From assembly GCA_016188545.1 (NCBI GenBank), contig JACPHO010000001.1:14249-78248 (forward strand): 64,000 nt of DNA. The letters are read 5' to 3'. The DNA comes from Candidatus Shapirobacteria bacterium. GTDB lineage: Bacteria > Patescibacteriota > Microgenomatia > UBA12405. Below the pieces are notes generated by a model. That model worked only from the letters and a program-made list of their open reading frames with translations, was not told the DNA's origin and ran no database searches. Made by a program: the position numbers and the translations under genes. This document shows, in pieces, positions 2,561 to 57,253 of this stretch (positions within the stretch are counted from its first letter, which is position 1; each line of letters opens with the position of its first letter).

Positions 2561-2578
2561 CTGTGACCCGGTAGTAAA
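2510..2578. repeat. direct repeat copy 2 (overlaps GIY-YIG 3' end and tRNA-Cys 5' end)
   Basis: near-identical to 2185-2253. Confidence 0.6.
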
Positions 2579-2635
2579 GCGGTTATACAGCGGTCTGCAA
2601 AACCGTTTAGGCGGGTTCAACTCCCGCCCGGGTCT
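2565..2635 (+). tRNA. tRNA-Cys (GCA)
   Basis: acceptor gacccgg/ccgggtc; D-loop AAAGCGGUUAU as in bacterial tRNA-Cys; anticodon stem gcggt/accgt with loop cuGCAaa; T-arm gcggg-TTCAACT-cccgc; discriminator U; no encoded CCA. Confidence 0.7.
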
Positions 2636-2637
2636 CA

Positions 2638-20435: not shown

Positions 20436-21411
20436 ATCATCAAGTATACTAAATCAAATGCGTGCAGTGCGAATCCTCTTACCATTGTTGTTTATAGCTA
20501 CCAGTATTGCTTTCTTTTCTAATATCTACACCACCACCCAACAACTCGTCATTAGCCCTTCCTCAGACACGACTCTTGACTCACCAACCATTTCTCCCTC
20601 CACAACCCCCACTCCTGTACCTGCGCTAACTATAGGGCTTGCTGGCGATCTTGGACTTGGACGACATATTACTTCAACTGCTCGTTCCAAAAACGATTTC
20701 ACCTGGAGTTTTAAAGAAATCAGCCCCTGGCTCATGGAAAATACTTTTAATCTTGCCAATCTCGAATCACCCATCATTCCCCTCTGTCCAGAAGGTAAGA
20801 CGGGGACATTTACTTTTTGTGGAGATGAAAGATTTATTCCAGAACTAGCCAAAAATAAGTTTTTTCTCAACTTAAATAATAACCATATTCTCAACTATCA
20901 CCCCCAAGGACTTATAGATACCAAAAACCTTTTAACTAGAGCGTCTATCCCATATTTTTTTGATGATCTACTTATAAAAGAAGTCAACGGAGTCCGTCTT
21001 GGATTTCTCGGGTATGATTTCATAACCTACCCCTCCCTTGATAAACAAAAAATAATCGATACGATTAAAACTTCAAAACCAAAAGTTGACTATCTATTTA
21101 TTTCCATTCATTGGGGAAATGAGTATCTCCCCGTAGCCGAGAAGTGGCGTGTCGATTTTGCTCGCCAAATGGTTGACGCTGGAGCAGACATTATTCATGG
21201 CCACCACCCCCATGTTTGGCAGGGTGTCGAAAAATATAAAGATAGTCTAATTTTTTATTCATTCGGTAACTTCGTTTTTGACCAAAGTTGGTCCTATGAA
21301 ACTTCCCACTCCCAAATTGCCCGACTTAAGATCCAAAAAGGGGAGCCACTAACTTATGAACTTTTTCCGATAGAAATTCGGTCTAACTCTCAACCTGTAT
21401 TAATGCCTTAA
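20371..21411 (+). CDS. CapA-family metallophosphatase (poly-gamma-glutamate/capsule synthesis protein-like)
   Basis: 346 aa (start may be the internal Met near 20461); NLESPI, GADIIHGHHPHVWQG, FGNFVFDQ motifs. Confidence 0.6.
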   Translation: MLKLHPDSTKLNNSTANARSFISSSILNQMRAVRILLPLLFIATSIAFFSNIYTTTQQLVISPSSDTTLDSPTISPSTTPTPVPALTIGLAGDLGLGRHITSTARSKNDFTWSFKEISPWLMENTFNLANLESPIIPLCPEGKTGTFTFCGDERFIPELAKNKFFLNLNNNHILNYHPQGLIDTKNLLTRASIPYFFDDLLIKEVNGVRLGFLGYDFITYPSLDKQKIIDTIKTSKPKVDYLFISIHWGNEYLPVAEKWRVDFARQMVDAGADIIHGHHPHVWQGVEKYKDSLIFYSFGNFVFDQSWSYETSHSQIARLKIQKGEPLTYELFPIEIRSNSQPVLMP

Positions 21412-21958
21412 GTACTTCTTCTGGTGTTTCTACTGTTGCCACCACCCTTTTTTCTTTTTCTTCAAAATGCATTTTGCCGATAATATCTTTAACGATTATT
21501 TCCCATTCTCTTCCAACAAATATCAGTGGTTCGTGATGGCCATATTCAAACTTTGCCAGTTCCCAAACTAACCCAACTTCGGCCAGTGTTCCCGTGCCAC
21601 CTTTAAAAATAACAAAGGAATCAGCTATCTCCACCAATTTGCTAACTCTCTCGTGAATATTCTTAGTTTTATAAATTTTTTCTGCATAATCCATGTTTCC
21701 CTTGTCACTACCCTCATAATTTCCTGGTTCAAACTTTGGGTCGATTATTACTAGTTCAACTTTCCCCCCACCCATCTCGGCTCCATCCGTCGATGCCTTC
21801 ATGATTCCTGGTCCACCACCGTTAACCACTATATATCCATTTTCTGCCAATAGCTTGGCTGTACTTTTCGCCAATACACAAGAGGTGTCATTTTCCGGTA
21901 AGTCAGCATCGCCAAAAAATGCCACCCGTTTTATTTTTTTGTCAGTTTTAGCGATCAT
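21383..21958 (-). CDS. LOG-family nucleotide-binding protein (TIGR00730, cytokinin riboside 5'-monophosphate phosphoribohydrolase-like)
   Basis: 191 aa; GGGPGIM, Rossmann-like. Confidence 0.7.
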   Translation of the reverse strand: MIAKTDKKIKRVAFFGDADLPENDTSCVLAKSTAKLLAENGYIVVNGGGPGIMKASTDGAEMGGGKVELVIIDPKFEPGNYEGSDKGNMDYAEKIYKTKNIHERVSKLVEIADSFVIFKGGTGTLAEVGLVWELAKFEYGHHEPLIFVGREWEIIVKDIIGKMHFEEKEKRVVATVETPEEVLKALIQVES

Positions 21959-22395
21959 TTGTTTATAAAACTTTTTAATTTTTGGTCAAAAGTTACACTG
22001 TGATAGGCCTCTGGTAACAGCTCGTGTAGTAACTTACTCTGATATTCTCCACTTTGTTTGGCAGATATTACCTCGATTTCTTTATTTGTAGTCTGATAAA
22101 ACTGGACCAGGTACTGAAGACAAGTCCCACAAGGAAATATAAATTCTTTCTCGTCCACAACTAATATTGCTTTTATGTTGTATTTTCCATGAACTACCGC
22201 ATGATTTAGAGCGCTCGACTCTGCACATGTACCCATTCCCGATATCACCCCATCAACATTACACCCCCCATATATTTCTCCATCATCTGTTAAAACCGCA
22301 GCCCCAAACGAATGATTGGATTTAAAAATAAAAGCATTATCTTCCGCCTCGTTGGCGACTTTCAACATTTTTTCAATTATTTCTTTATCAAGCAT
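21955..22395 (-). CDS. cdd: cytidine/deoxycytidylate deaminase
   Basis: C..AE....PCGTC zinc-binding motif; the annotated ORF (to 22452) overlaps rpe, so the start is probably the internal Met at 22395. Confidence 0.65.
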   Translation of the reverse strand: MLDKEIIEKMLKVANEAEDNAFIFKSNHSFGAAVLTDDGEIYGGCNVDGVISGMGTCAESSALNHAVVHGKYNIKAILVVDEKEFIFPCGTCLQYLVQFYQTTNKEIEVISAKQSGEYQSKLLHELLPEAYHSVTFDQKLKSFINK

Positions 22396-22978
22396 TTCTG
22401 AGCTTCCAATAATTAACTTCAGAATACACAATATCTGCTCCGGCTTCCTCAATCGCTTTCACATTATCAGTATCAGCCCCGCCATCTATTCCCACAATAT
22501 ATCCCATGTCCTTAATTTTTTTGATTTTATCAAGTACTTTTTTCTCAAACTCAAAATAACCAAAACCTGCCTTTCTGCCCATCAGTAGCACTATATCCCA
22601 ATCTCCTACAATTTTATCAACCTCCGTGTCCACATCAAAAGCTAGACCAGCCTCAGCTCCCTCATTCTTTATCTTTTCCAAAAAATCTTCTCGACTACTC
22701 ATCATTTCAACTTGTCCAATAACTCTACTTGCCCCTATATGGATTGCTTTATTTACCCAAGTACTAGGTTCTTTAACCATCAGATGGACATCCCACAAAT
22801 TGTTAGGGGTCTCAAAGTCTAGTTTACCCATAAGGTCCAAATCAAAGGTTCTTCCTGTCGCAAAAACACCATCACAAACATCAACCTGAATCCACCTTGA
22901 AGCATCTTTTAGTTTTTTGATAGCTTCTTCAGCATCATAGAAGTCCTTTTTTAATCCAGCAGTCGGAATTATTTGCAT
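22388..22978 (-). CDS. rpe: ribulose-phosphate 3-epimerase
   Basis: 196 aa; QVDVCDGVF, HLMV, GIDGG motifs. Confidence 0.7.
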   Translation of the reverse strand: MQIIPTAGLKKDFYDAEEAIKKLKDASRWIQVDVCDGVFATGRTFDLDLMGKLDFETPNNLWDVHLMVKEPSTWVNKAIHIGASRVIGQVEMMSSREDFLEKIKNEGAEAGLAFDVDTEVDKIVGDWDIVLLMGRKAGFGYFEFEKKVLDKIKKIKDMGYIVGIDGGADTDNVKAIEEAGADIVYSEVNYWKLRNA

Positions 22979-24003
22979 ATATACATTGCCATTTCAATTA
23001 GACGGCAGGAATAGCCGTATTCGTTATCGTACCATGCTCCAATACAAACCATATCATCAGCCACTACATTAGTCATACGGGTATCAATCACACAAGATGC
23101 GTTGTTACCAATGATATCGGAAGATACTAACGGCTCATAAGTTACCTTGACCTTCCCCACCATTTCTGGACTGACACTGGCATCTTCAAAAATGGAGTTA
23201 ACTTCTTCGATAGTTGTCTTGCGAACCATTTTAAAAGTCAGGTCTGAGTAGCTTCCACAAATGACTGGCACCCGTATAGCTGTTCCAGCAAATCTACCCT
23301 TAGCTTCCGGGTAGGCGGCAATTACTGCCTCAGCTGCTCCAGTGGCAGTTGGCACTATGTTAATAGCTGCTGCACGTGCTCGGCGAGGATCTTTCCCGCT
23401 TCCATCAACAATATTTTGATTAGTTGTATACGCATGAATGGTGGTTAGTGATCCTTCTTGAAACCCAATTTTCTCATCAATCAGTTTGACGATCGGTGCC
23501 ACACAGTTTGTTGTACAAGAACCATTTGACACTAATTTTTCACCTTTATATCTATTTTCATTAACTCCCAGAATGAACACTGGAATTTTTGGGTCCTTGG
23601 CAGGGGCTGAGATCACCACTTTCTTAGCACCTCCGTTTAAGTGTAAAAGTGCCTTACTGTCAGTAAAAGCTCCAGTGCATTCTAATACCACCCCAACTCC
23701 ATAGTCGCCCCATTTTATTTTCCCAGGGTCACTTTCACCCAGTAGGGGAATGACAACATCACCAACTACCAGTCGGCCTATCTCTCCGCCTTTTTGTGGA
23801 TCAGATGTCTCCACTTTCATGGGAACTCTTCCGTATACTGAGTCATATTTAAACTGGTTGGCGTAGGACTCAGCGCTTAGGTCACCTTTAGTATTAATGG
23901 CAGCCACTTCAACATCGTATTTTTCCATTAGTATTGCCCTTAGTACTACTGTGCCAATTCTTCCAAAACCGTTTATACCTACTTTCAATTTTTTATTCTG
24001 CAT
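22969..24003 (-). CDS. gap: glyceraldehyde-3-phosphate dehydrogenase
   Basis: 344 aa; NGFGRIG, SCTTNCVAP. Confidence 0.9.
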   Translation of the reverse strand: MQNKKLKVGINGFGRIGTVVLRAILMEKYDVEVAAINTKGDLSAESYANQFKYDSVYGRVPMKVETSDPQKGGEIGRLVVGDVVIPLLGESDPGKIKWGDYGVGVVLECTGAFTDSKALLHLNGGAKKVVISAPAKDPKIPVFILGVNENRYKGEKLVSNGSCTTNCVAPIVKLIDEKIGFQEGSLTTIHAYTTNQNIVDGSGKDPRRARAAAINIVPTATGAAEAVIAAYPEAKGRFAGTAIRVPVICGSYSDLTFKMVRKTTIEEVNSIFEDASVSPEMVGKVKVTYEPLVSSDIIGNNASCVIDTRMTNVVADDMVCIGAWYDNEYGYSCRLIEMAMYICK

Positions 24004-25042
24004 AACTTAATGATATAGCATTTACCACTCGCTTCGCTACTCTTGGCTTCTGTAGTTCGTGATCTGGCACCGCTCTGGCTCTTTCCACCACTTTGTCAAG
24101 CCTAATCGGCATAAAAAATACCACGGCTCCAACCAGATCCTCACCTTCATCATTTCTCCTCATGGACTCAGCAAAATCTCGAAATATTCCCATACTAGCT
24201 CTAAACTTTCTTATCTCATCCACGTTATCATGTGTTCGTTCAAACGATCTTCCGCACTCCGCAAATGAGTTTGCGTCCAGCACATCATACTCTTGTGGAA
24301 AATCATGCCTTCCTTGGCGCACTTTAACTTGATAAAAAGTAGTTTTTCCATTTCCATTATCTGCAATCAAATCAACTTTATTATCCTGGTCATCAGCCTC
24401 ACTTCCAAATCGGACATTTTCCATTCCCATATCTTTCAGTAACCAAAAGGCAGCCATCTCTGCTTCGATTCCGTTGATGTATCGTAATCGTTTTCGCTCT
24501 CCCAGAAGCCTAAGAATCTTAGGGTTATCAAATACAGAATCAAACATTTTATACGATTGAACTTTGTCATATCCCAGCTCCCCAACGCATATTTCCATCA
24601 AATCTTTCCATGCTTTTCCAAAAGCCATTCCTTCATGCTTCTCTTCCTTAATGTTATGGTTTCTACTTAGTGACTCTATAAGACTATTAGTGGTGGCACA
24701 GCCATTAGCTACCAAAAAAACCAACTTCCTTTGGTCTTCACTAGTTGAATCAAACCCTCTCTGATCTACTTCATTCTTAGCCCAGACCCATTCCAAACTA
24801 TCATGTGACATATCACTTTCCAATATTTGAACTGCTTTCACAATTCTATTCGGTCTAGGTAAGTTTTCGAAACGAGCCTGAACCTTATGATCGGCTTGTC
24901 TGATAGAGGATTCTCTGATTTTTGGTCCTGGATCATCCATACACCACTCAACCAGTCGTTTACTCGAGTCAATTTGTTTTTCCCTACCATCCAATGGAGC
25001 TGCTAACCACTCAAATGTCGGAAGTGATCTTGCTCTTCCCAT
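23993..25042 (-). CDS. hypothetical protein with C-terminal PD-(D/E)xK / Mrr-like nuclease motif
   Basis: 349 aa; VDLIADNGNGKTTFYQVKV resembles the Mrr-cat D...QxK core; tightly packed between pgk and gap (start 2 nt after pgk stop, end overlapping gap start). Confidence 0.4.
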   Translation of the reverse strand: MGRARSLPTFEWLAAPLDGREKQIDSSKRLVEWCMDDPGPKIRESSIRQADHKVQARFENLPRPNRIVKAVQILESDMSHDSLEWVWAKNEVDQRGFDSTSEDQRKLVFLVANGCATTNSLIESLSRNHNIKEEKHEGMAFGKAWKDLMEICVGELGYDKVQSYKMFDSVFDNPKILRLLGERKRLRYINGIEAEMAAFWLLKDMGMENVRFGSEADDQDNKVDLIADNGNGKTTFYQVKVRQGRHDFPQEYDVLDANSFAECGRSFERTHDNVDEIRKFRASMGIFRDFAESMRRNDEGEDLVGAVVFFMPIRLDKVVERARAVPDHELQKPRVAKRVVNAISLSYAE

Positions 25043-25043
25043 G

Positions 25044-26075
25044 TTATTCCCATGCTGGCAGACTGCCCTTCGTCAGTAGTTCTAACATCATCCCTCCACC
25101 AGAAGCGATTAAGTCAATTTGTTCTTTCATCCCCAAACTTTCTACAGATGCTGTCGTATCCCCACCAGCCAGTACTTTATACCCTGGACTACTGGCCACA
25201 GCCATGGCTATTTCTTTTGTTCCTTCTTTACAGTCATCCTTTTCAAACCACCCCATGGCTCCCGCCCAGACAACCATTTTTGACTGGCCGATAATTTCTT
25301 TAAATTGAGCTATGTCTTCTTTACTTAGATCAAATCCATCTTCTCGTAATTTTGCAACTTTTATTTTTTCACTTTTAACTATTAACTCTTCACTATTATT
25401 AATTAATAGTGGCAATTTCCCCCCAATTAACACATGATCGGCAATTTTTAGAAGTTCCGGCAAATGACTTAATTTATCTGCTTTTGCTCCACCCAATACG
25501 ATAGTCAATGGGTGACTAGGATCATCAACTACTTTTAATATTTTTTCTACTTCGGAAATAAACGCCAATCCATAAAATCCTGGCAAACTTTTATAAAGCA
25601 TATTAGATCTTTCCTTTCGGTGGGACACCGCCAGAGCATCATTTACAAAAAATTGGCAGATTTCCACAAGATTTTTTAAAAAGTCACTATCATTTGCCTC
25701 TTCACCTTTCCAGAATCTCAGGTTCTCCAAAAATACTATTTGATTTGTTGCCATCGCCATATCCAGCTTTTCAAAGTTACCCACATCCTCCACAAAAATA
25801 CTCTCTATCAAATTTTCACCGTTTGGTTCGAGTAAGCTCATTAGTTCCACATACACCGGTCTCATTGAATATTTTGGGTCATGCCCTTCAGGACGACCAA
25901 GCTTACCCACTATAGAGACCTGACATTTTTTGGCGAGCAGTAGTTTTATAGTAGGAATCGATTTTACTAGTCGGTAGTTATCGCTGATATCCCCATCATT
26001 CATTGGCACGTCTAAGTCTAGTTTTAGAATTACTTTTGTCTCTGGTAATATTTCCTCAACCGATCTCAGCTTCAT
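25044..26075 (-). CDS. pgk: phosphoglycerate kinase (short form)
   Basis: 343 aa; GRPEG, FLENLRFWKGEE, LGGAKADKL, WAGAMGWFE, AGGDT motifs. Confidence 0.85.
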   Translation of the reverse strand: MKLRSVEEILPETKVILKLDLDVPMNDGDISDNYRLVKSIPTIKLLLAKKCQVSIVGKLGRPEGHDPKYSMRPVYVELMSLLEPNGENLIESIFVEDVGNFEKLDMAMATNQIVFLENLRFWKGEEANDSDFLKNLVEICQFFVNDALAVSHRKERSNMLYKSLPGFYGLAFISEVEKILKVVDDPSHPLTIVLGGAKADKLSHLPELLKIADHVLIGGKLPLLINNSEELIVKSEKIKVAKLREDGFDLSKEDIAQFKEIIGQSKMVVWAGAMGWFEKDDCKEGTKEIAMAVASSPGYKVLAGGDTTASVESLGMKEQIDLIASGGGMMLELLTKGSLPAWE

Positions 26076-26502
26076 ATTTTTTTATTTTATTAATTCTTCT
26101 AATATACCTCTCTTCTGAGCCAAACATTGTTGCCAGAAAAACTGACACTATCTTCATGTTCTCATCCACACTGACGGCATCAGCTGATAGGCAAACAACA
26201 TTGATATCGTCGTCGTTTCGGGCAGCTCTGGCTTGTTTTTCAAAAGTACAAAGCCCAGCTCTAATCCCTTTTACTTTATTGACGGCAATTGATGCTCCGG
26301 CGCCTGATCCACAAACCAGTATTCCTCTACCATTTTCGACCGCCACCTTTTCACCAATTTTTATAGCAAAGTCGGCATAGTCGTCTTCCTTTTCGTACGA
26401 ATTTGCCCCCAGATCTCTAAATTCATAGTGCTCTGACTCCATCCATTTTTTTATCTCCTCTTTGAGCCTAAATCCGCGGTGATCAGCAGCAATATATATC
26501 AT
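26056..26502 (-). CDS. rpiB: ribose-5-phosphate isomerase B
   Basis: 148 aa; GILVCGSGAGASIAVNK. Confidence 0.8.
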   Translation of the reverse strand: MIYIAADHRGFRLKEEIKKWMESEHYEFRDLGANSYEKEDDYADFAIKIGEKVAVENGRGILVCGSGAGASIAVNKVKGIRAGLCTFEKQARAARNDDDINVVCLSADAVSVDENMKIVSVFLATMFGSEERYIRRINKIKKYEAEIG

Positions 26503-27230: not shown

Positions 27231-28319
27231 TTGTATAATACACACATGGACCCGTCAAAATCTCTTGTTTTCTACATCATAAGGGAAAAAAGTGAAGATG
27301 CTGCAAAAGACTTTCCCAACCTTATTTATGACATTCGTAACGCTTATGTCTTTGTCGATGTCATCGAAAGTTCCCCTCGCTCAGTCACCCTATCCGGTGA
27401 TGCGTCCTACAAATCAGAACTCGAGTATCTTACTACCGACAAACCCGAAAAATTTTCTAATTATTCCTTTTGCGCAAAACTAACAATTACCCAAGAAGAT
27501 TATTTAACCTTCAACAAGCTCCGCCAGTTCCTATCCCACCACCGCTACGAATATCGTATCTATAGCAATCAGCTCCATTCTTATCTTCCTAAGGACAGCG
27601 AACTTATCAATCTAGAATTTGGTTCAGTCAATCTTAAAACTTTTGAAGCTCTCAAAAAATTCTCTCTCATCCCCATCTATTTCTCCCAAAAGAATCGTAA
27701 CTATTACGCTATCAATTTGACCGATAAAAAAGTTCACCTAGTCAACCCCCATCTTCTCGCATTTATTTTTGACAAAACAATTCCCGAATCCACCATGCCC
27801 GAACTGAGTTATCCAGTTGCTCAAGATCTAAACCTTTTTTCAGCAATGTACGACAAACAACTTATACCCACTGACTTTTATCAATATTTCCAAAAATCTA
27901 CCAAGGTAATCAATAATAGTAACTTTGATATCGACAACCCCGGTCGAAAAGTTTTTATCAAACCATATATTCTAGAATTCAATGACAAAAACGGCGAGTT
28001 CTACACTTACGCCGGACCAGAGGGCGCCTCAATGCTATTAATGTCCAAAATCTTAAGAGGCGAGACTCTAGAAACTTGCTTACTACGTGTACTCAAAGAA
28101 GAACTGGGTATAGCCGAGGATTTTGTCGGCGCTTTTGTGTCACATGATATTGAGTTTGACCGTGATCGGGAAGGGAGACTCACTCCACGTCTAGTTGTCT
28201 TTGTTTATGTTGATAAAATCATCAACAAGGATAGGGCTCTTCAAATGAGTCAAACTGGTTGGCGCTCAGTCGATGGAAAGATCCCAAATTTGACCACACA
28301 AAATAAATCAAAAAGTTAG
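27231..28319 (+). CDS. hypothetical protein with degenerate C-terminal Nudix-like box
   Basis: 362 aa; GETLETCLLRVLKEELGI approximates GX5EX7REUXEEXGU with substitutions. Confidence 0.35.
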   Translation: MYNTHMDPSKSLVFYIIREKSEDAAKDFPNLIYDIRNAYVFVDVIESSPRSVTLSGDASYKSELEYLTTDKPEKFSNYSFCAKLTITQEDYLTFNKLRQFLSHHRYEYRIYSNQLHSYLPKDSELINLEFGSVNLKTFEALKKFSLIPIYFSQKNRNYYAINLTDKKVHLVNPHLLAFIFDKTIPESTMPELSYPVAQDLNLFSAMYDKQLIPTDFYQYFQKSTKVINNSNFDIDNPGRKVFIKPYILEFNDKNGEFYTYAGPEGASMLLMSKILRGETLETCLLRVLKEELGIAEDFVGAFVSHDIEFDRDREGRLTPRLVVFVYVDKIINKDRALQMSQTGWRSVDGKIPNLTTQNKSKS

Positions 28320-29994: not shown

Positions 29995-30066
29995 CCAGCA
30001 GGAGCCGGGCGGTTAGGCAATGGTCTGTAAAACCATCATAAGTAGGTTCAACTCCTACCTGCTGGA
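29995..30066 (+). tRNA. tRNA-Tyr (GUA), class I (short variable arm)
   Basis: acceptor ccagcag/ctgctgg; anticodon stem atggt/accat with loop CUGUAAA (the Tyr loop); T-arm gtagg-TTCAACT-cctac; discriminator A; 5-nt variable region. Confidence 0.55.
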
Positions 30067-30112
30067 CAAGACACTGGAGTATACTAATTGGATTAATGAT
30101 TAAACATAATCC

Positions 30113-36923: not shown

Positions 36924-38501
36924 TGTACTAAGAGTTTGATCGTGGCTCAGGGTAAACGCTGGCGATGTGCCTAAGACATGCAAGTCGAACGGGATTTGTA
37001 GTCTACACGAAGACATTGATAACTTCTTAACTTTTTTTAAGTCTTTCCACTTTTGGAATATTTTTTTGAACTTTGATAAGAATCGATTATTGTAATCATT
37101 TCGATGTTTTCGTGTAGATTATAGATTCAGTGGCGAACGGGTGAGTAATGAGTACGAACGTACTCTCAAGCGGAACATAGCCCACCGAAAGGTGGGGTAA
37201 TTTTCCATAGTCTCGAAAGAGTAAAGACGCAAGTCACTTGAGAAGCGGCGTACTTGCCACCAGCTAGTTGGTAGGGTAACGGCCTACCAAGGCTATAACG
37301 GCTAACGGCTCTTAGCGGAGAGTCCGTCACAATGGGACTGAGACACGGCCCATACTTCTACGGAAGGCAGCAGTTAGGAATCTTGCACAATGGACGAAAG
37401 TCTGATGCAGCGACATCGCGTGAAGGATGAAGGCTCTCGGGTCGTAAACTTCTTTTATTTTGCCATGAAGGCATTTTGAATCAGCAACTACTAACTACGT
37501 GCCAGCAGTCGCGGTAATACGTAGGTTGCAAGCGTTACCCGGTTTTATTGGGCGTAAAGCGTCTGTAGGTGGTTTTATAAGTCTTATTTCAAAGACTCCG
37601 GCTCAACCGGAGATAGGGGTAGGATACTGTAAGACTAGAGTGATATCGGGGTTACTGGAATTTTTAGTGTAGGGGTAAAATCCGTGGATACTAAAAAGAA
37701 CACCAAGCGCGAAGGCGGGTAACTAGGTATTTACTGACACTCAGAGACGAAAGCTAGGGTAGCCAATCAGATTAGAGACCTGAGTAGTCCTAGCCGTAAA
37801 CTATGTATGTTAATTCTCTGCAATTTATTGTGGGGGATGTAAGCTAACGCGTTAAACATACCGCCTGGGGAGTATAGCCGCAAGGCCGAAACTCAAACGA
37901 ATTGGCGGGGAGGCGCACAACCAGTGGAGCATGTGGTTCAATTCGATACAAAGCGATGAACCTTACCTGGGTTTGACATTTATCTGCAAACCCCCAGAAA
38001 CGGGGGAATCCTTAGAGGGTGATAAACAGCTGTTGCATGGCTGTCGTCAGCTCGTGACGTGAGTTGTTCTCTTAAGTGAGGTAACGAGCGCAACCCCCAT
38101 CCGGTGTTATTGTGTCACCGGAGACTGCCTAGCATTATTTTGTTAGGAGGAAGGAGGGGACGACGTCAAGTCAGCATGATGCTTATGTCCAGGGCTACAC
38201 ACATCCTACAATGGGGAGGACAATGGGTCGCGAAACCGCGAGGTGGAGCCAATCCCACAAACCTTTCCTCAGTTGGGATTGCAGGCTGAAACTCGCCTGC
38301 ATGAACCCGGAATTGGTAGTAATCGCGCATCAGCAGCGCGCGGTGAATACGTTCTCGCCTCTTGCACACACTGCCCGTCAAATCAACAAAGTTGGGGGTA
38401 CCCGAAGCTTGGCCTTTGGCCGAATCAAGGTAAATCCAGCGATGAGGGTTAAGTCGTAACAAGGTATCTGTACTGGAAGGTGCAGATGGATCACCTCCTT
38501 T
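36924..38501 (+). rRNA. rrs: 16S ribosomal RNA, divergent (CPR-like), with ~100-nt AT-rich expansion in helix 6/V1 (~36995-37118)
   Basis: AGAGTTTGATCGTGGCTCAG at the 5' end; GTGCCAGCAGTCGCGGTAATAC (515 site with C>T); ATTAGAGACCTGAGTAGTCC; CTGCCCGTCA; AAGTCGTAACAAGGTA; GGATCACCTCCTT at the 3' end. Confidence 0.9.
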
Positions 38502-48199: not shown

Positions 48200-48700
48200 A
48201 AAAATATAAAGGAGGACTTTGTCACTCCGAAGCTCCCCAAAGGGGAGCGAAGGAGGAGATGCCAGGTATTGAGCCCGGGTCCGAAAGTGGACAATAAAAA
48301 ACTTCTACAAGCTTAATTAATTTTACTTGCCAGTCCGTAGCTCAAAGAGCGAAGGATGGTCCGTCAGTCAATGGAAATTAACAAACCATTGTTGACTGTC
48401 GATTATTGAGGGCATTACCCCTCGCTTGTTACCTACCAAAATCGAGATTGATAGACCAGCATTCTTGTTTAATTTACACCGACTAACCTCCTCAAGAATA
48501 GGGGATTAACCGATGGTCAGCTCAATTATGCTTGCGCGTAGTTGAGATCAGCTTTTGAAGTACCCAAACCGAAGCCTGAGAAATCTAGAGCTAAATTGAC
48601 ACCGAAGTTTTTAGCTTTGGCATGTTTTTGTTTGACCCTGTTTTATCCGTTTTACAACAGATCCGGCTCGGCCGGACGACTCAATGGATCAAAGTCGGCT
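48200..48700. ncRNA. candidate structured RNA in a 617-nt ORF-free gap (tmRNA or RNase P RNA-like; strand and ends unresolved)
   Basis: GC-rich hairpins (ctcccc-aaa-ggggag; gagggcattacccctc); plus strand: ACAGATCCGGCT resembles RNase P CR-IV and can pair with GAGCC[C]GGGTC 385 nt upstream (P4-like), GCCAGGTA shared with M1 RNA; minus strand: GGGGTAATGCCCTCAATAATCGACAG resembles a tmRNA 5' end; adjacent to smpB. Confidence 0.2.
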
Positions 48701-48773
48701 TGCGGTTTTTTAAGGTACTCACTCCGTCGATGCAATACATCTCCGAGTCTAGAACAGGAAAATTATACCATAT

Positions 48774-56018: not shown

Positions 56019-56083
56019 TATATTTTGCAAACTACATATTTATTAGGTAACATATTACCAAGTGTTAAGAAGATGCTAATCCA

Positions 56084-57253
56084 TTGGCAACCGAGCTCAG
56101 CCACGGTGCCCTCAATAACACGCCTTTAATAATTAACAAAGGAAAAATGAATTATCCTCAGTTCTCTTCCGAATCTGTCTGTGAAGGTCATCCCGATAAA
56201 GTTTGCGATCAAATCGCCGATGCCATTCTCGATGCCGCTTATACCATTGACCCCAAAGCTCGTGTAGCCTCTGAGGTTTTGGCAACAGCCAATAAATTAG
56301 TTCTGGCTGGTGAAATCACTGTAAACGGTGAACTAGACTTCGAAGCCATTGCTCGCAAAAAGATTGCAGAGTTAGATTATCTAGATCCTGTTCTGCAGTT
56401 CACTGACAAATCAGACATTGAGGTATTTATCCACAAACAATCACCAGACATCGCTCAAGGTGTCGATGCTGGTGGTGCAGGTGATCAGGGAATGATGTTT
56501 GGTTATGCCTGCAAAGAGACTCCTGAACTAATGCCCCTGCCTATTTCTATGTCTCACAGTCTGGCTAGAAAAATGGATGAATTGCAACGTATTCACCGCT
56601 GGTTACGTCCCGACGGTAAGTCACAAGTAACTGTCAGGTACGATGGTCAAACACCTTCCGTTATCGAACAAGTAGTGCTTGCCAAACCAATAAATTATGC
56701 AGCTGCTCCCCAAGATTATGCGCATTTCTTTTATGAGAATGTAGTTGTACCGGTCTTATCGGAATACGGATTTTCCGTTACCGAAGGTAAAATGATCCTA
56801 AACGGCACTGGTAAGTGGGAAATCGGTGGACCATTCTCAGACACTGGCGTAACCAATCGAAAAATTGTCGTCGACACTTTTGGAGGTATGGGAAGAATCG
56901 GTGGGGGTGGATTATCCGGTAAAGATACCACCAAAGTTGATCGCAGTGGGGTTTACGCTGCCCGTTATTTAGCCAAAAATGTAGTCGCTGCTGGTCTTGC
57001 TGATCGCTGCGAAGTCCAGTTAGCTTATGCCATCGGACAAGTCCAACCTGTCGGTAAAGCCATCGAAACATTTGGTACTGCCCGTTCCGAACAAAAAGTA
57101 ATTGAAGATTTCGCCTGGCAACTCCTCGACCTTTCTGTTGCTGGTATCAATGAAGGACTTTCTCTCCGTGTACCTATTTACCAAAAAACTGCTCGTTATG
57201 GACACTTTGGCAACAAAGATTATCCTTGGGAAAAGATTATCGCATCTCAATAA
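56084..57253 (+). CDS. metK: S-adenosylmethionine synthetase
   Basis: 389 aa; GHPDKVCDQIADAILDA, GAGDQG, GGGGLSGKD. Confidence 0.9.
   Translation: MATELSHGALNNTPLIINKGKMNYPQFSSESVCEGHPDKVCDQIADAILDAAYTIDPKARVASEVLATANKLVLAGEITVNGELDFEAIARKKIAELDYLDPVLQFTDKSDIEVFIHKQSPDIAQGVDAGGAGDQGMMFGYACKETPELMPLPISMSHSLARKMDELQRIHRWLRPDGKSQVTVRYDGQTPSVIEQVVLAKPINYAAAPQDYAHFFYENVVVPVLSEYGFSVTEGKMILNGTGKWEIGGPFSDTGVTNRKIVVDTFGGMGRIGGGGLSGKDTTKVDRSGVYAARYLAKNVVAAGLADRCEVQLAYAIGQVQPVGKAIETFGTARSEQKVIEDFAWQLLDLSVAGINEGLSLRVPIYQKTARYGHFGNKDYPWEKIIASQ

Follow-up and report, generated by a model that had tools for sequence, protein, structure and literature searches.

The genes for phosphoglycerate kinase (pgk) and glyceraldehyde-3-phosphate dehydrogenase (gap) in a Candidatus Shapirobacteria contig are separated by a gene whose product, here called X, contains a PD-(D/E)xK nuclease-fold domain with an invariant predicted active site. 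Taking all of the evidence together, we consider it probable that X is an endonuclease-type member of this superfamily, that its gene was inserted once and inherited vertically, and that it is expressed by read-through. The stretch of DNA we analyzed, 64,000 nucleotides long, is called the window below, and its features are collected in Table 1.

Table 1. Coordinates of gene X, its parts, and its operon in the window
Feature	Position	Strand	Basis or remark
Entire close-packed operon rpiB-pgk-X-gap-rpe-cdd-LOG	21383..26502	-	ORFs, Pfam
pgk, phosphoglycerate kinase, 343 aa, upstream neighbor of X	25044..26075	-	Pfam PGK, E 2e-72
pgk stop, 1 nt, X start junction; translational coupling (inferred)	25040..25046	-	Sequence
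X coding sequence	23993..25042	-	ORF; 100% match to P0001; dN/dS 0.06-0.13
All-helical N-terminal domain of X, residues 1-182	24497..25042	-	AF2 model, alignment
PD-(D/E)xK nuclease-fold domain of X, residues 183-327	24062..24496	-	alpha1-beta1-beta2-beta3-beta4, two-helix insert, beta5-alpha
Codons E193-A194-E195 on helix alpha1 (NGIEAE)	24458..24466	-	Invariant; E195 aligns with Hjc catalytic E9
Codon D224 (KVDLIA, beta2 start)	24371..24373	-	Aligns with Hjc D33
Codons Q238-V239-K240 (beta3), QxK variant of (D/E)xK	24323..24331	-	Align with Hjc E46-V-K48
Low-confidence C-terminal tail of X, residues 328-349 and stop	23993..24061	-	pLDDT 29-31; tail dN/dS 0.39
TATCATTAA element, 3 nt upstream of gap ATG	24007..24015	-	Embedded in X codons for AISL
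11-nt overlap of X 3' end and gap 5' end, ATGCAGAATAA	23993..24003	-	gap ATG at 24003-24001
gap, glyceraldehyde-3-phosphate dehydrogenase, 344 aa, downstream neighbor of X	22969..24003	-	Pfam Gp_dh_N and Gp_dh_C

A sequence-only reading of the window had placed a 349-aa gene between pgk and gap, starting 2 nt past the pgk stop and overlapping the gap start by 11 nt, within a minus-strand operon of the order rpiB-pgk-X-gap-rpe-cdd-LOG. This architecture held throughout. The ORF list contains the frame with ATG initiation, a single spacer base (25043) lies between the pgk TAA (25046-25044) and the X ATG (25042-25040), and the gap ATG falls within the last 11 nt of X. Pfam identified the neighbors of X as RpiB, PGK, GAPDH, Rpe, a cytidine/dCMP deaminase, and a LOG/SLOG-family protein, with a divergent YgjP-like gene, a NUDIX gene, and an ExoIII-like gene beyond the operon. 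In the database, X matches at 100% an NCBI entry named [quoted passage not shown] Every junction among the seven operon genes either overlaps or has a gap of ≤1 nt, and promoter- or terminator-like matches inside the operon were no more frequent than in shuffled sequence. X has no recognizable promoter of its own and would be expressed by read-through and by translational coupling with pgk and gap; a GGGAA within the final pgk codons is a possible ribosome-binding site for it. The same 11-nt X/gap overlap occurs in L001, L002, L003, L004, L005, L006, L007, L008, and L009.

Several operon genes had peculiarities of their own. Bacterial PGK is usually ~390 to 400 aa long; PGK in the X clade is merely 341 to 343 aa, and the Pfam PGK model matched the window protein (25044-26075, minus strand) in two stretches. 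The deaminase ORF (21955-22452, minus strand), as called mechanically, begins at a TTG and shares 65 nt with rpe. In homologous loci the product has 145 to 146 aa, so an internal ATG, leaving only a short overlap, is probably the true start. At L015:2948-4441 (GCA_036391655.1), rpiB and pgk are fused in one 497-aa ORF with LacAB_rpiB and PGK domains.

Among 5.8 billion proteins, a word-indexed search recovered ten sequences (59-100% identity), to which exhaustive HMMER profile searching of 1.84 billion cluster representatives added six true distant relatives and no more (19-28% identity). A broader X profile gave no additional relatives, and a profile of the nuclease domain alone gave zero matches in the 5.8-billion-protein set, missing known family members too, so that this null result carries no information. 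Two kinds of candidate were set aside. P0013 (2733 aa, 17 matched stretches in the exhaustive search) was rejected as a relative because its cadherin-like acidic repeat makes it a compositional/repeat artefact, and P0009 and P0010, which appeared to be short forms of 280 and 282 aa, proved to be start-codon miscalls, with the full N terminus in frame and an ATG 2 nt past the pgk stop. We found no X relatives in phage, plasmid, and IMG/VR viral-contig collections, and a metagenome scan placed X in no other genomic context. In all 20 of the X loci fetched, which include every distant relative, X lies between pgk and gap, and the loci share the syntenic block YgjP / rpiB-pgk-X-gap-rpe-(cdd)-LOG. 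No sampled member of the clade lacked X, and close relatives did not differ in having it. In one locus (L100:2340-3262), the homologue is split into overlapping ORFs of 157 and 162 aa by a frameshift near 2774-2813, which may be a pseudogene or an assembly error, the source being one low-coverage Logan contig; another locus has a shorter copy followed by an extra 95-aa ORF (L019:4220-4507). Both copies are possibly degenerate.

The surroundings of the X loci hold other conserved genes. The window encodes a 362-aa protein without a Pfam hit (27231-28319, plus strand), and unannotated ORFs of like size lie beside the YgjP-like gene in L001, L007, and L013; it is another conserved unknown of the X-bearing clade. 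NUDIX and ExoIII-like EEP genes are conserved near X loci, as is a HIT gene nearby in L007.

We searched Pfam, NCBIfam, PADLOC, PHROGs, and PDB sequences with X, with each family member, and with profiles, and obtained nothing significant. In the AlphaFold model of full-length X (pLDDT 74, pTM 0.76), the N-terminal half is all-helical and the C-terminal half is alpha/beta, and a separate model of residues 160 to 330 (pLDDT 90.2, pTM 0.85) is a confident nuclease fold, containing the alpha-beta-beta-beta-alpha-beta core that defines the PD-(D/E)xK superfamily. The polar residues invariant across the family are E193, E195, D218, D224, Q238, and K240. Four of these (E195, D224, Q238, and K240) are invariant in 14/14 aligned relatives, down to ~20% identity, and they sit where a PD-(D/E)xK catalytic constellation is expected, with E195 on alpha1, D224 at the start of beta2, and Q238-x-K240 on beta3. 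The nuclease-like peptide from which the earlier suspicion arose, VDLIADNGNGKTTFYQVKV, is indeed present, but it comprises residues 223 to 241 and so belongs to the C-terminal domain, not to the C terminus where it had been placed.

Pairwise comparisons with known structures gave a consistent register. HMMER against the PDB aligned D224, Q238, and K240 with D33, E46, and K48 of the Holliday junction resolvase Hjc (1gef) at a nonsignificant E of ~1; hhalign of X with a profile of four PDB Hjc/Hje sequences (probability 29%, pairwise E 6e-4) and BLASTP against 1gef (33% identity over 67 residues, E 4e-5 for a single comparison) both placed E195 over E9. An hhalign comparison with YraN (3fov) gave the same register at a probability of 9%, and sub-threshold NERD (PF08378) hits were seen with 2/14 family members (best E 0.005, below the Pfam gathering threshold). 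We conclude that a nuclease fold with an intact Hjc/YraN-like catalytic constellation, in a QxK variant, is well supported, and that membership of X in any named family, Mrr included, is not. From the fold and the invariant residues we infer that X would cleave nucleic acid at a phosphodiesterase site dependent on divalent metal and built from E195, D224, and Q238-x-K240.

The N-terminal domain carries family-specific motifs, (F/M)(E/D)DP, LVANGC, EGxAFGQxWK, and FDxxFDN, and in its alignment F167 and F171 are invariant and D168, D172, and G138 nearly so. No relatives of this domain were detectable outside the X family, and full-length fold searches returned generic helical-bundle hits only. 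The helical domain, with its invariant FDxxFD helix packed beside the nuclease core, might serve substrate recognition and/or oligomerization. Conservation across X is highest in residues 134 to 245 and lowest in the block of the two-helix insert (residues 246-300), the insert itself comprising residues 257 to 297. We saw no fast-evolving recognition domain, the N-terminal and nuclease domains evolving at similar rates.

X founds a small family, not classified before, within a well-known superfamily, and our literature search found no description of it. By analogy, this new and very narrowly distributed family would work in the manner of the small PD-(D/E)xK nucleases of the Hjc/YraN/VRR-NUC type, to which it adds an accessory domain. 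In size and architecture X departs from the Hjc/Hje enzymes (PDB 1gef, 1hh1, 1ob8, and 2wcw; Pfam Hjc), which are archaeal, stand-alone homodimers of ~120 to 145 aa that resolve four-way junctions, whereas X is bacterial (CPR), 349 aa long, and adds 180 aa of helical domain at its N terminus and, following beta4, a two-helix insert; the third catalytic position is E in Hjc/Hje and Q in X, and Pfam Hjc gave no hit. YraN/UPF0102 proteins (PDB 3fov) are likewise stand-alone, ~120 to 130 aa, and widespread in bacteria, whereas X has the extra N-terminal domain and occurs in a narrow clade, without a Pfam UPF0102 match. VRR-NUC/FAN1, NucS/EndoMS, and NERD show no significant sequence match to X and have different accessory domains.

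The resemblance to Mrr, which the sequence-only reading had stressed, proved to be one of kind and not of family. Mrr carries a D...QxK variant of the motif, which D224...Q238-V-K240 of X reproduces, and Mrr-type (Type IV) enzymes and X are both solitary nucleases without a methyltransferase partner in which a noncatalytic N-terminal domain precedes a C-terminal PD-(D/E)xK domain of the same fold class, an architecture analogous in X to that of Mrr or NucS. The fold and the motif pattern stood, and the Mrr assignment did not: neither X nor any of its 14 relatives hit Mrr_cat or the winged-helix Mrr_N even at E≤10, and X did not match PADLOC defense models. X also differs from Mrr in that its N-terminal domain is all-helical and unrelated in sequence, and in that it lies outside defense islands and mobile elements.

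With a GAPDH probe of GTDB species genomes, we located the nearest relatives without X. In a Shapirobacteria MAG whose GAPDH is 74% identical (L020), pgk is followed by a 30-nt spacer and gap; in L023 and in L024 (a Daviesbacteria MAG), pgk abuts gap. Elsewhere, including more distant Microgenomates, the slot holds unrelated genes: an 86-aa membrane ORF on the opposite strand in L021 (L021:5686-5956), a 147-aa HTH-like ORF and an 87-aa membrane ORF in L030 (4920-5995), and several genes in L025 (1416-5968). No X remnants were found in the pgk-gap spacers of L020, L021, L023, and L024. A neighbor-joining tree of PGK grouped the X-bearing loci as one clade with L020 as its sister; the GAPDH tree was compatible with this, with that node unresolved. 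The operon is older than X and works without it in X-less relatives. The simplest history would be a single insertion of X, after the pgk stop and ahead of the gap leader, into the ancestral rpiB-pgk-gap-rpe-(cdd)-LOG operon, in the ancestor of one Shapirobacteria subclade, followed by vertical descent. The earlier suggestion of a nuclease gene inserted into a housekeeping operon was supported at the level of the fold, with the qualification that the insertion is ancient and vertically inherited. The synteny check it had called for showed the slot occupied by X in one clade only and empty or otherwise filled in X-less relatives; the contrary prospect, a known glycolysis-associated family universally present at this position, was not borne out, with no Pfam/NCBIfam hit for X and an empty slot in L020, L023, and L024.

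Two observations arose from these loci. The pgk-gap junction seems tolerant of lineage-specific inserts in Microgenomates (L021, L030, L019, and L025). L021 (CAYXDV010000005.1) and L023 (CAZAEB010000013.1) are titled "uncultured Gammaproteobacteria," but have Shapirobacteria-like pgk-gap loci with GAPDH 60 to 70% identical to that of the window, and these bin labels are probably wrong.

The 3' end of X records how the gene met the gap leader. The 9-mer TATCATTAA is unique within the 64-kb window. It occurs once per locus, in X-less L020 as well as in X-bearing loci, and starts 11 to 12 nt ahead of the gap ATG (L001:6129, L002:4947, L004:2132, L005:2075, L007:7028, L009:1726, L010:1255, L017:6994, and L020:1527). 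Such spacing would suit either a translation-initiation element or the -10-like box of a gap transcript with no leader or almost none. The longer leader (TTGTTG)TATCATTAA(T) is retained downstream of X in L010 and L017 as well as in L020, and on the simplest history it would be the ancestral gap leader, through which the X reading frame was lengthened in the window's subgroup. The final codons of X run through this conserved gap initiation region, while distant relatives terminate earlier. Extension of the frame through the leader would therefore account for the invariant "AISLxYAE" on an otherwise disordered tail and for the low synonymous divergence there (dS of 0.15 in the last eight codons vs. 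~1.7 in the remaining gene); TATCATTAA constrains the synonymous sites of these codons.

Among close relatives, pairwise dN/dS was 0.06 to 0.13 for X, 0.02 to 0.07 for pgk, and 0.01 to 0.04 for gap, and from these values we conclude that X is a protein-coding gene under purifying selection, less constrained than its neighbors. Together with the existence of relatives, they place the gene far beyond a chance reading frame. Between L017 and the window, PGK is 72% identical, GAPDH 78.5%, and X 28%; by these sequence comparisons, X appears to evolve several-fold faster than its neighbors, yet under purifying selection. The claim that X is GC-richer than its neighbors failed: its GC content is 0.409, compared with 0.426 for gap, 0.388 for pgk, and 0.404 for the window, and its GC3 is 0.334, compared with 0.348 for gap and 0.331 for pgk. 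Among 64 window genes the percentile rank of X is 55 in GC, 9 in GC3, and 69 in codon-usage distance, and neither this ranking nor the comparison with its neighbors revealed an anomaly that would signal foreign origin.

With respect to function, X is not a glycolytic enzyme. Families of glycolytic enzymes and regulators in Pfam/NCBIfam (e.g., CggR and TpiA) gave no hit, and a cryptic TpiA, CggR, or other glycolytic component was ruled out by fold and distribution. X is predicted to be cytoplasmic because it has no hydrophobic segment, and a cytoplasmic nuclease made at the levels of a constitutive operon would have to be selective, whether for a DNA structure, a modification, or single-stranded or RNA substrates. 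Such selectivity fits the structure-specific nature of the closest folds, and we therefore tentatively favor, as an inferred role, a structure- or modification-specific DNA endonuclease in genome maintenance or defense that uses the constitutive expression of the operon.

The position of X might instead point to nucleic acid salvage, in which X would degrade imported or turned-over DNA and RNA to nucleotides, a LOG/PpnN-like nucleotide nucleosidase and cdd would act on them, RpiB and Rpe would then convert ribose-5-phosphate, and Gap and Pgk would harvest ATP. The operon would then be a route from nucleic acid to ATP, with X as the entry enzyme. The operon does unite LOG-family, cytidine deaminase, RpiB, Rpe, Gap, and Pgk genes, X is apparently coupled in translation to pgk and gap, NUDIX, ExoIII-like EEP, and (in L007) HIT genes are conserved nearby, and CPR bacteria are generally thought to depend on scavenged nucleotides. 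We nevertheless consider this unlikely. The operon predates X and functions in relatives that lack it, the closest folds (Hjc, YraN, VRR-NUC, and NucS) are structure-specific endonucleases and not bulk degraders, and, since the entire neighborhood is syntenic, the place where X lies says little about a tie to glycolysis. A tighter version, in which X is integrated with the operon and feeds scavenged nucleic acid to LOG/cdd, then RpiB/Rpe, then Gap/Pgk, possibly in a complex with Gap or Pgk, seems slightly less likely again; if true, X would be the first nuclease of an episymbiotic CPR bacterium dedicated to the entry into nucleic-acid catabolism.

A selfish, free-standing, homing-endonuclease-like gene that cut the empty pgk-gap junction of X-less genomes, was copied in by repair, and owes its presence to drive or fixation and not to host benefit would also fit the empty sites, the fast evolution, and the two copies that may be degraded. 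Homing endonucleases are active in the rRNA genes of Shapirobacteria (PMC11270868). We regard this origin as improbable, since invariant catalytic residues and a dN/dS of ~0.1 across deep divergence are unlike a cycle of gain, degeneration, and loss. Empty sites occur only in more distant lineages, and X is fixed in the sampled clade, no close relative lacking it. The trees allow vertical descent, composition is native, and no copies were found elsewhere or on mobile elements; the frameshift in L100, seen in one low-coverage contig, may reflect misassembly. Unlike the intronless homing Seg/Mob endonucleases of T4-like phages and I-Ssp6803I (itself PD-(D/E)xK), X is chromosomal in a cellular lineage, fixed in its clade, and under purifying selection; its catalytic residues are intact, and nothing points to horizontal spread. 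Least probable of all is a noncatalytic regulator, Gap/Pgk-binding scaffold, or RNA-binding or processing factor for the operon transcript built on a nuclease fold, as a noncatalytic protein would scarcely be expected to keep four invariant residues at catalytic positions (an RNA-cleaving one would), X shows no HTH or known regulator domain, sister lineages with the same operon lack it, and it evolves much faster than its would-be partner enzymes.

Under the favored endonuclease reading, a hypothetical-protein family outside all curated libraries gains a fold and a probable catalytic site, and X becomes a nuclease gene that was captured and then long and stably kept in a core energy-metabolism operon of a reduced-genome bacterium. 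What is odd about X is its location between pgk and gap, kept to ~20% identity, which is a curiosity and not a new principle. If X were tied to the ribose and lower-glycolysis genes, it would bear on the use of scavenged nucleic acid by CPR bacteria unable to make nucleotides de novo; if not, it is another lineage-specific PD-(D/E)xK nuclease whose location marks a Shapirobacteria subclade and warns against guilt-by-association annotation.

The window also contains RNA genes away from the operon. These are a 16S rRNA (36924-38501, plus strand), a tmRNA (48251-48744, minus strand) that spans 494 nt compared with the 374 positions of the model, a SAM-I/IV riboswitch (56057-56158, plus strand) barely over the gathering score, and genes for tRNA-Cys (2565-2636, plus strand) and tRNA-Tyr (29995-30067, plus strand).
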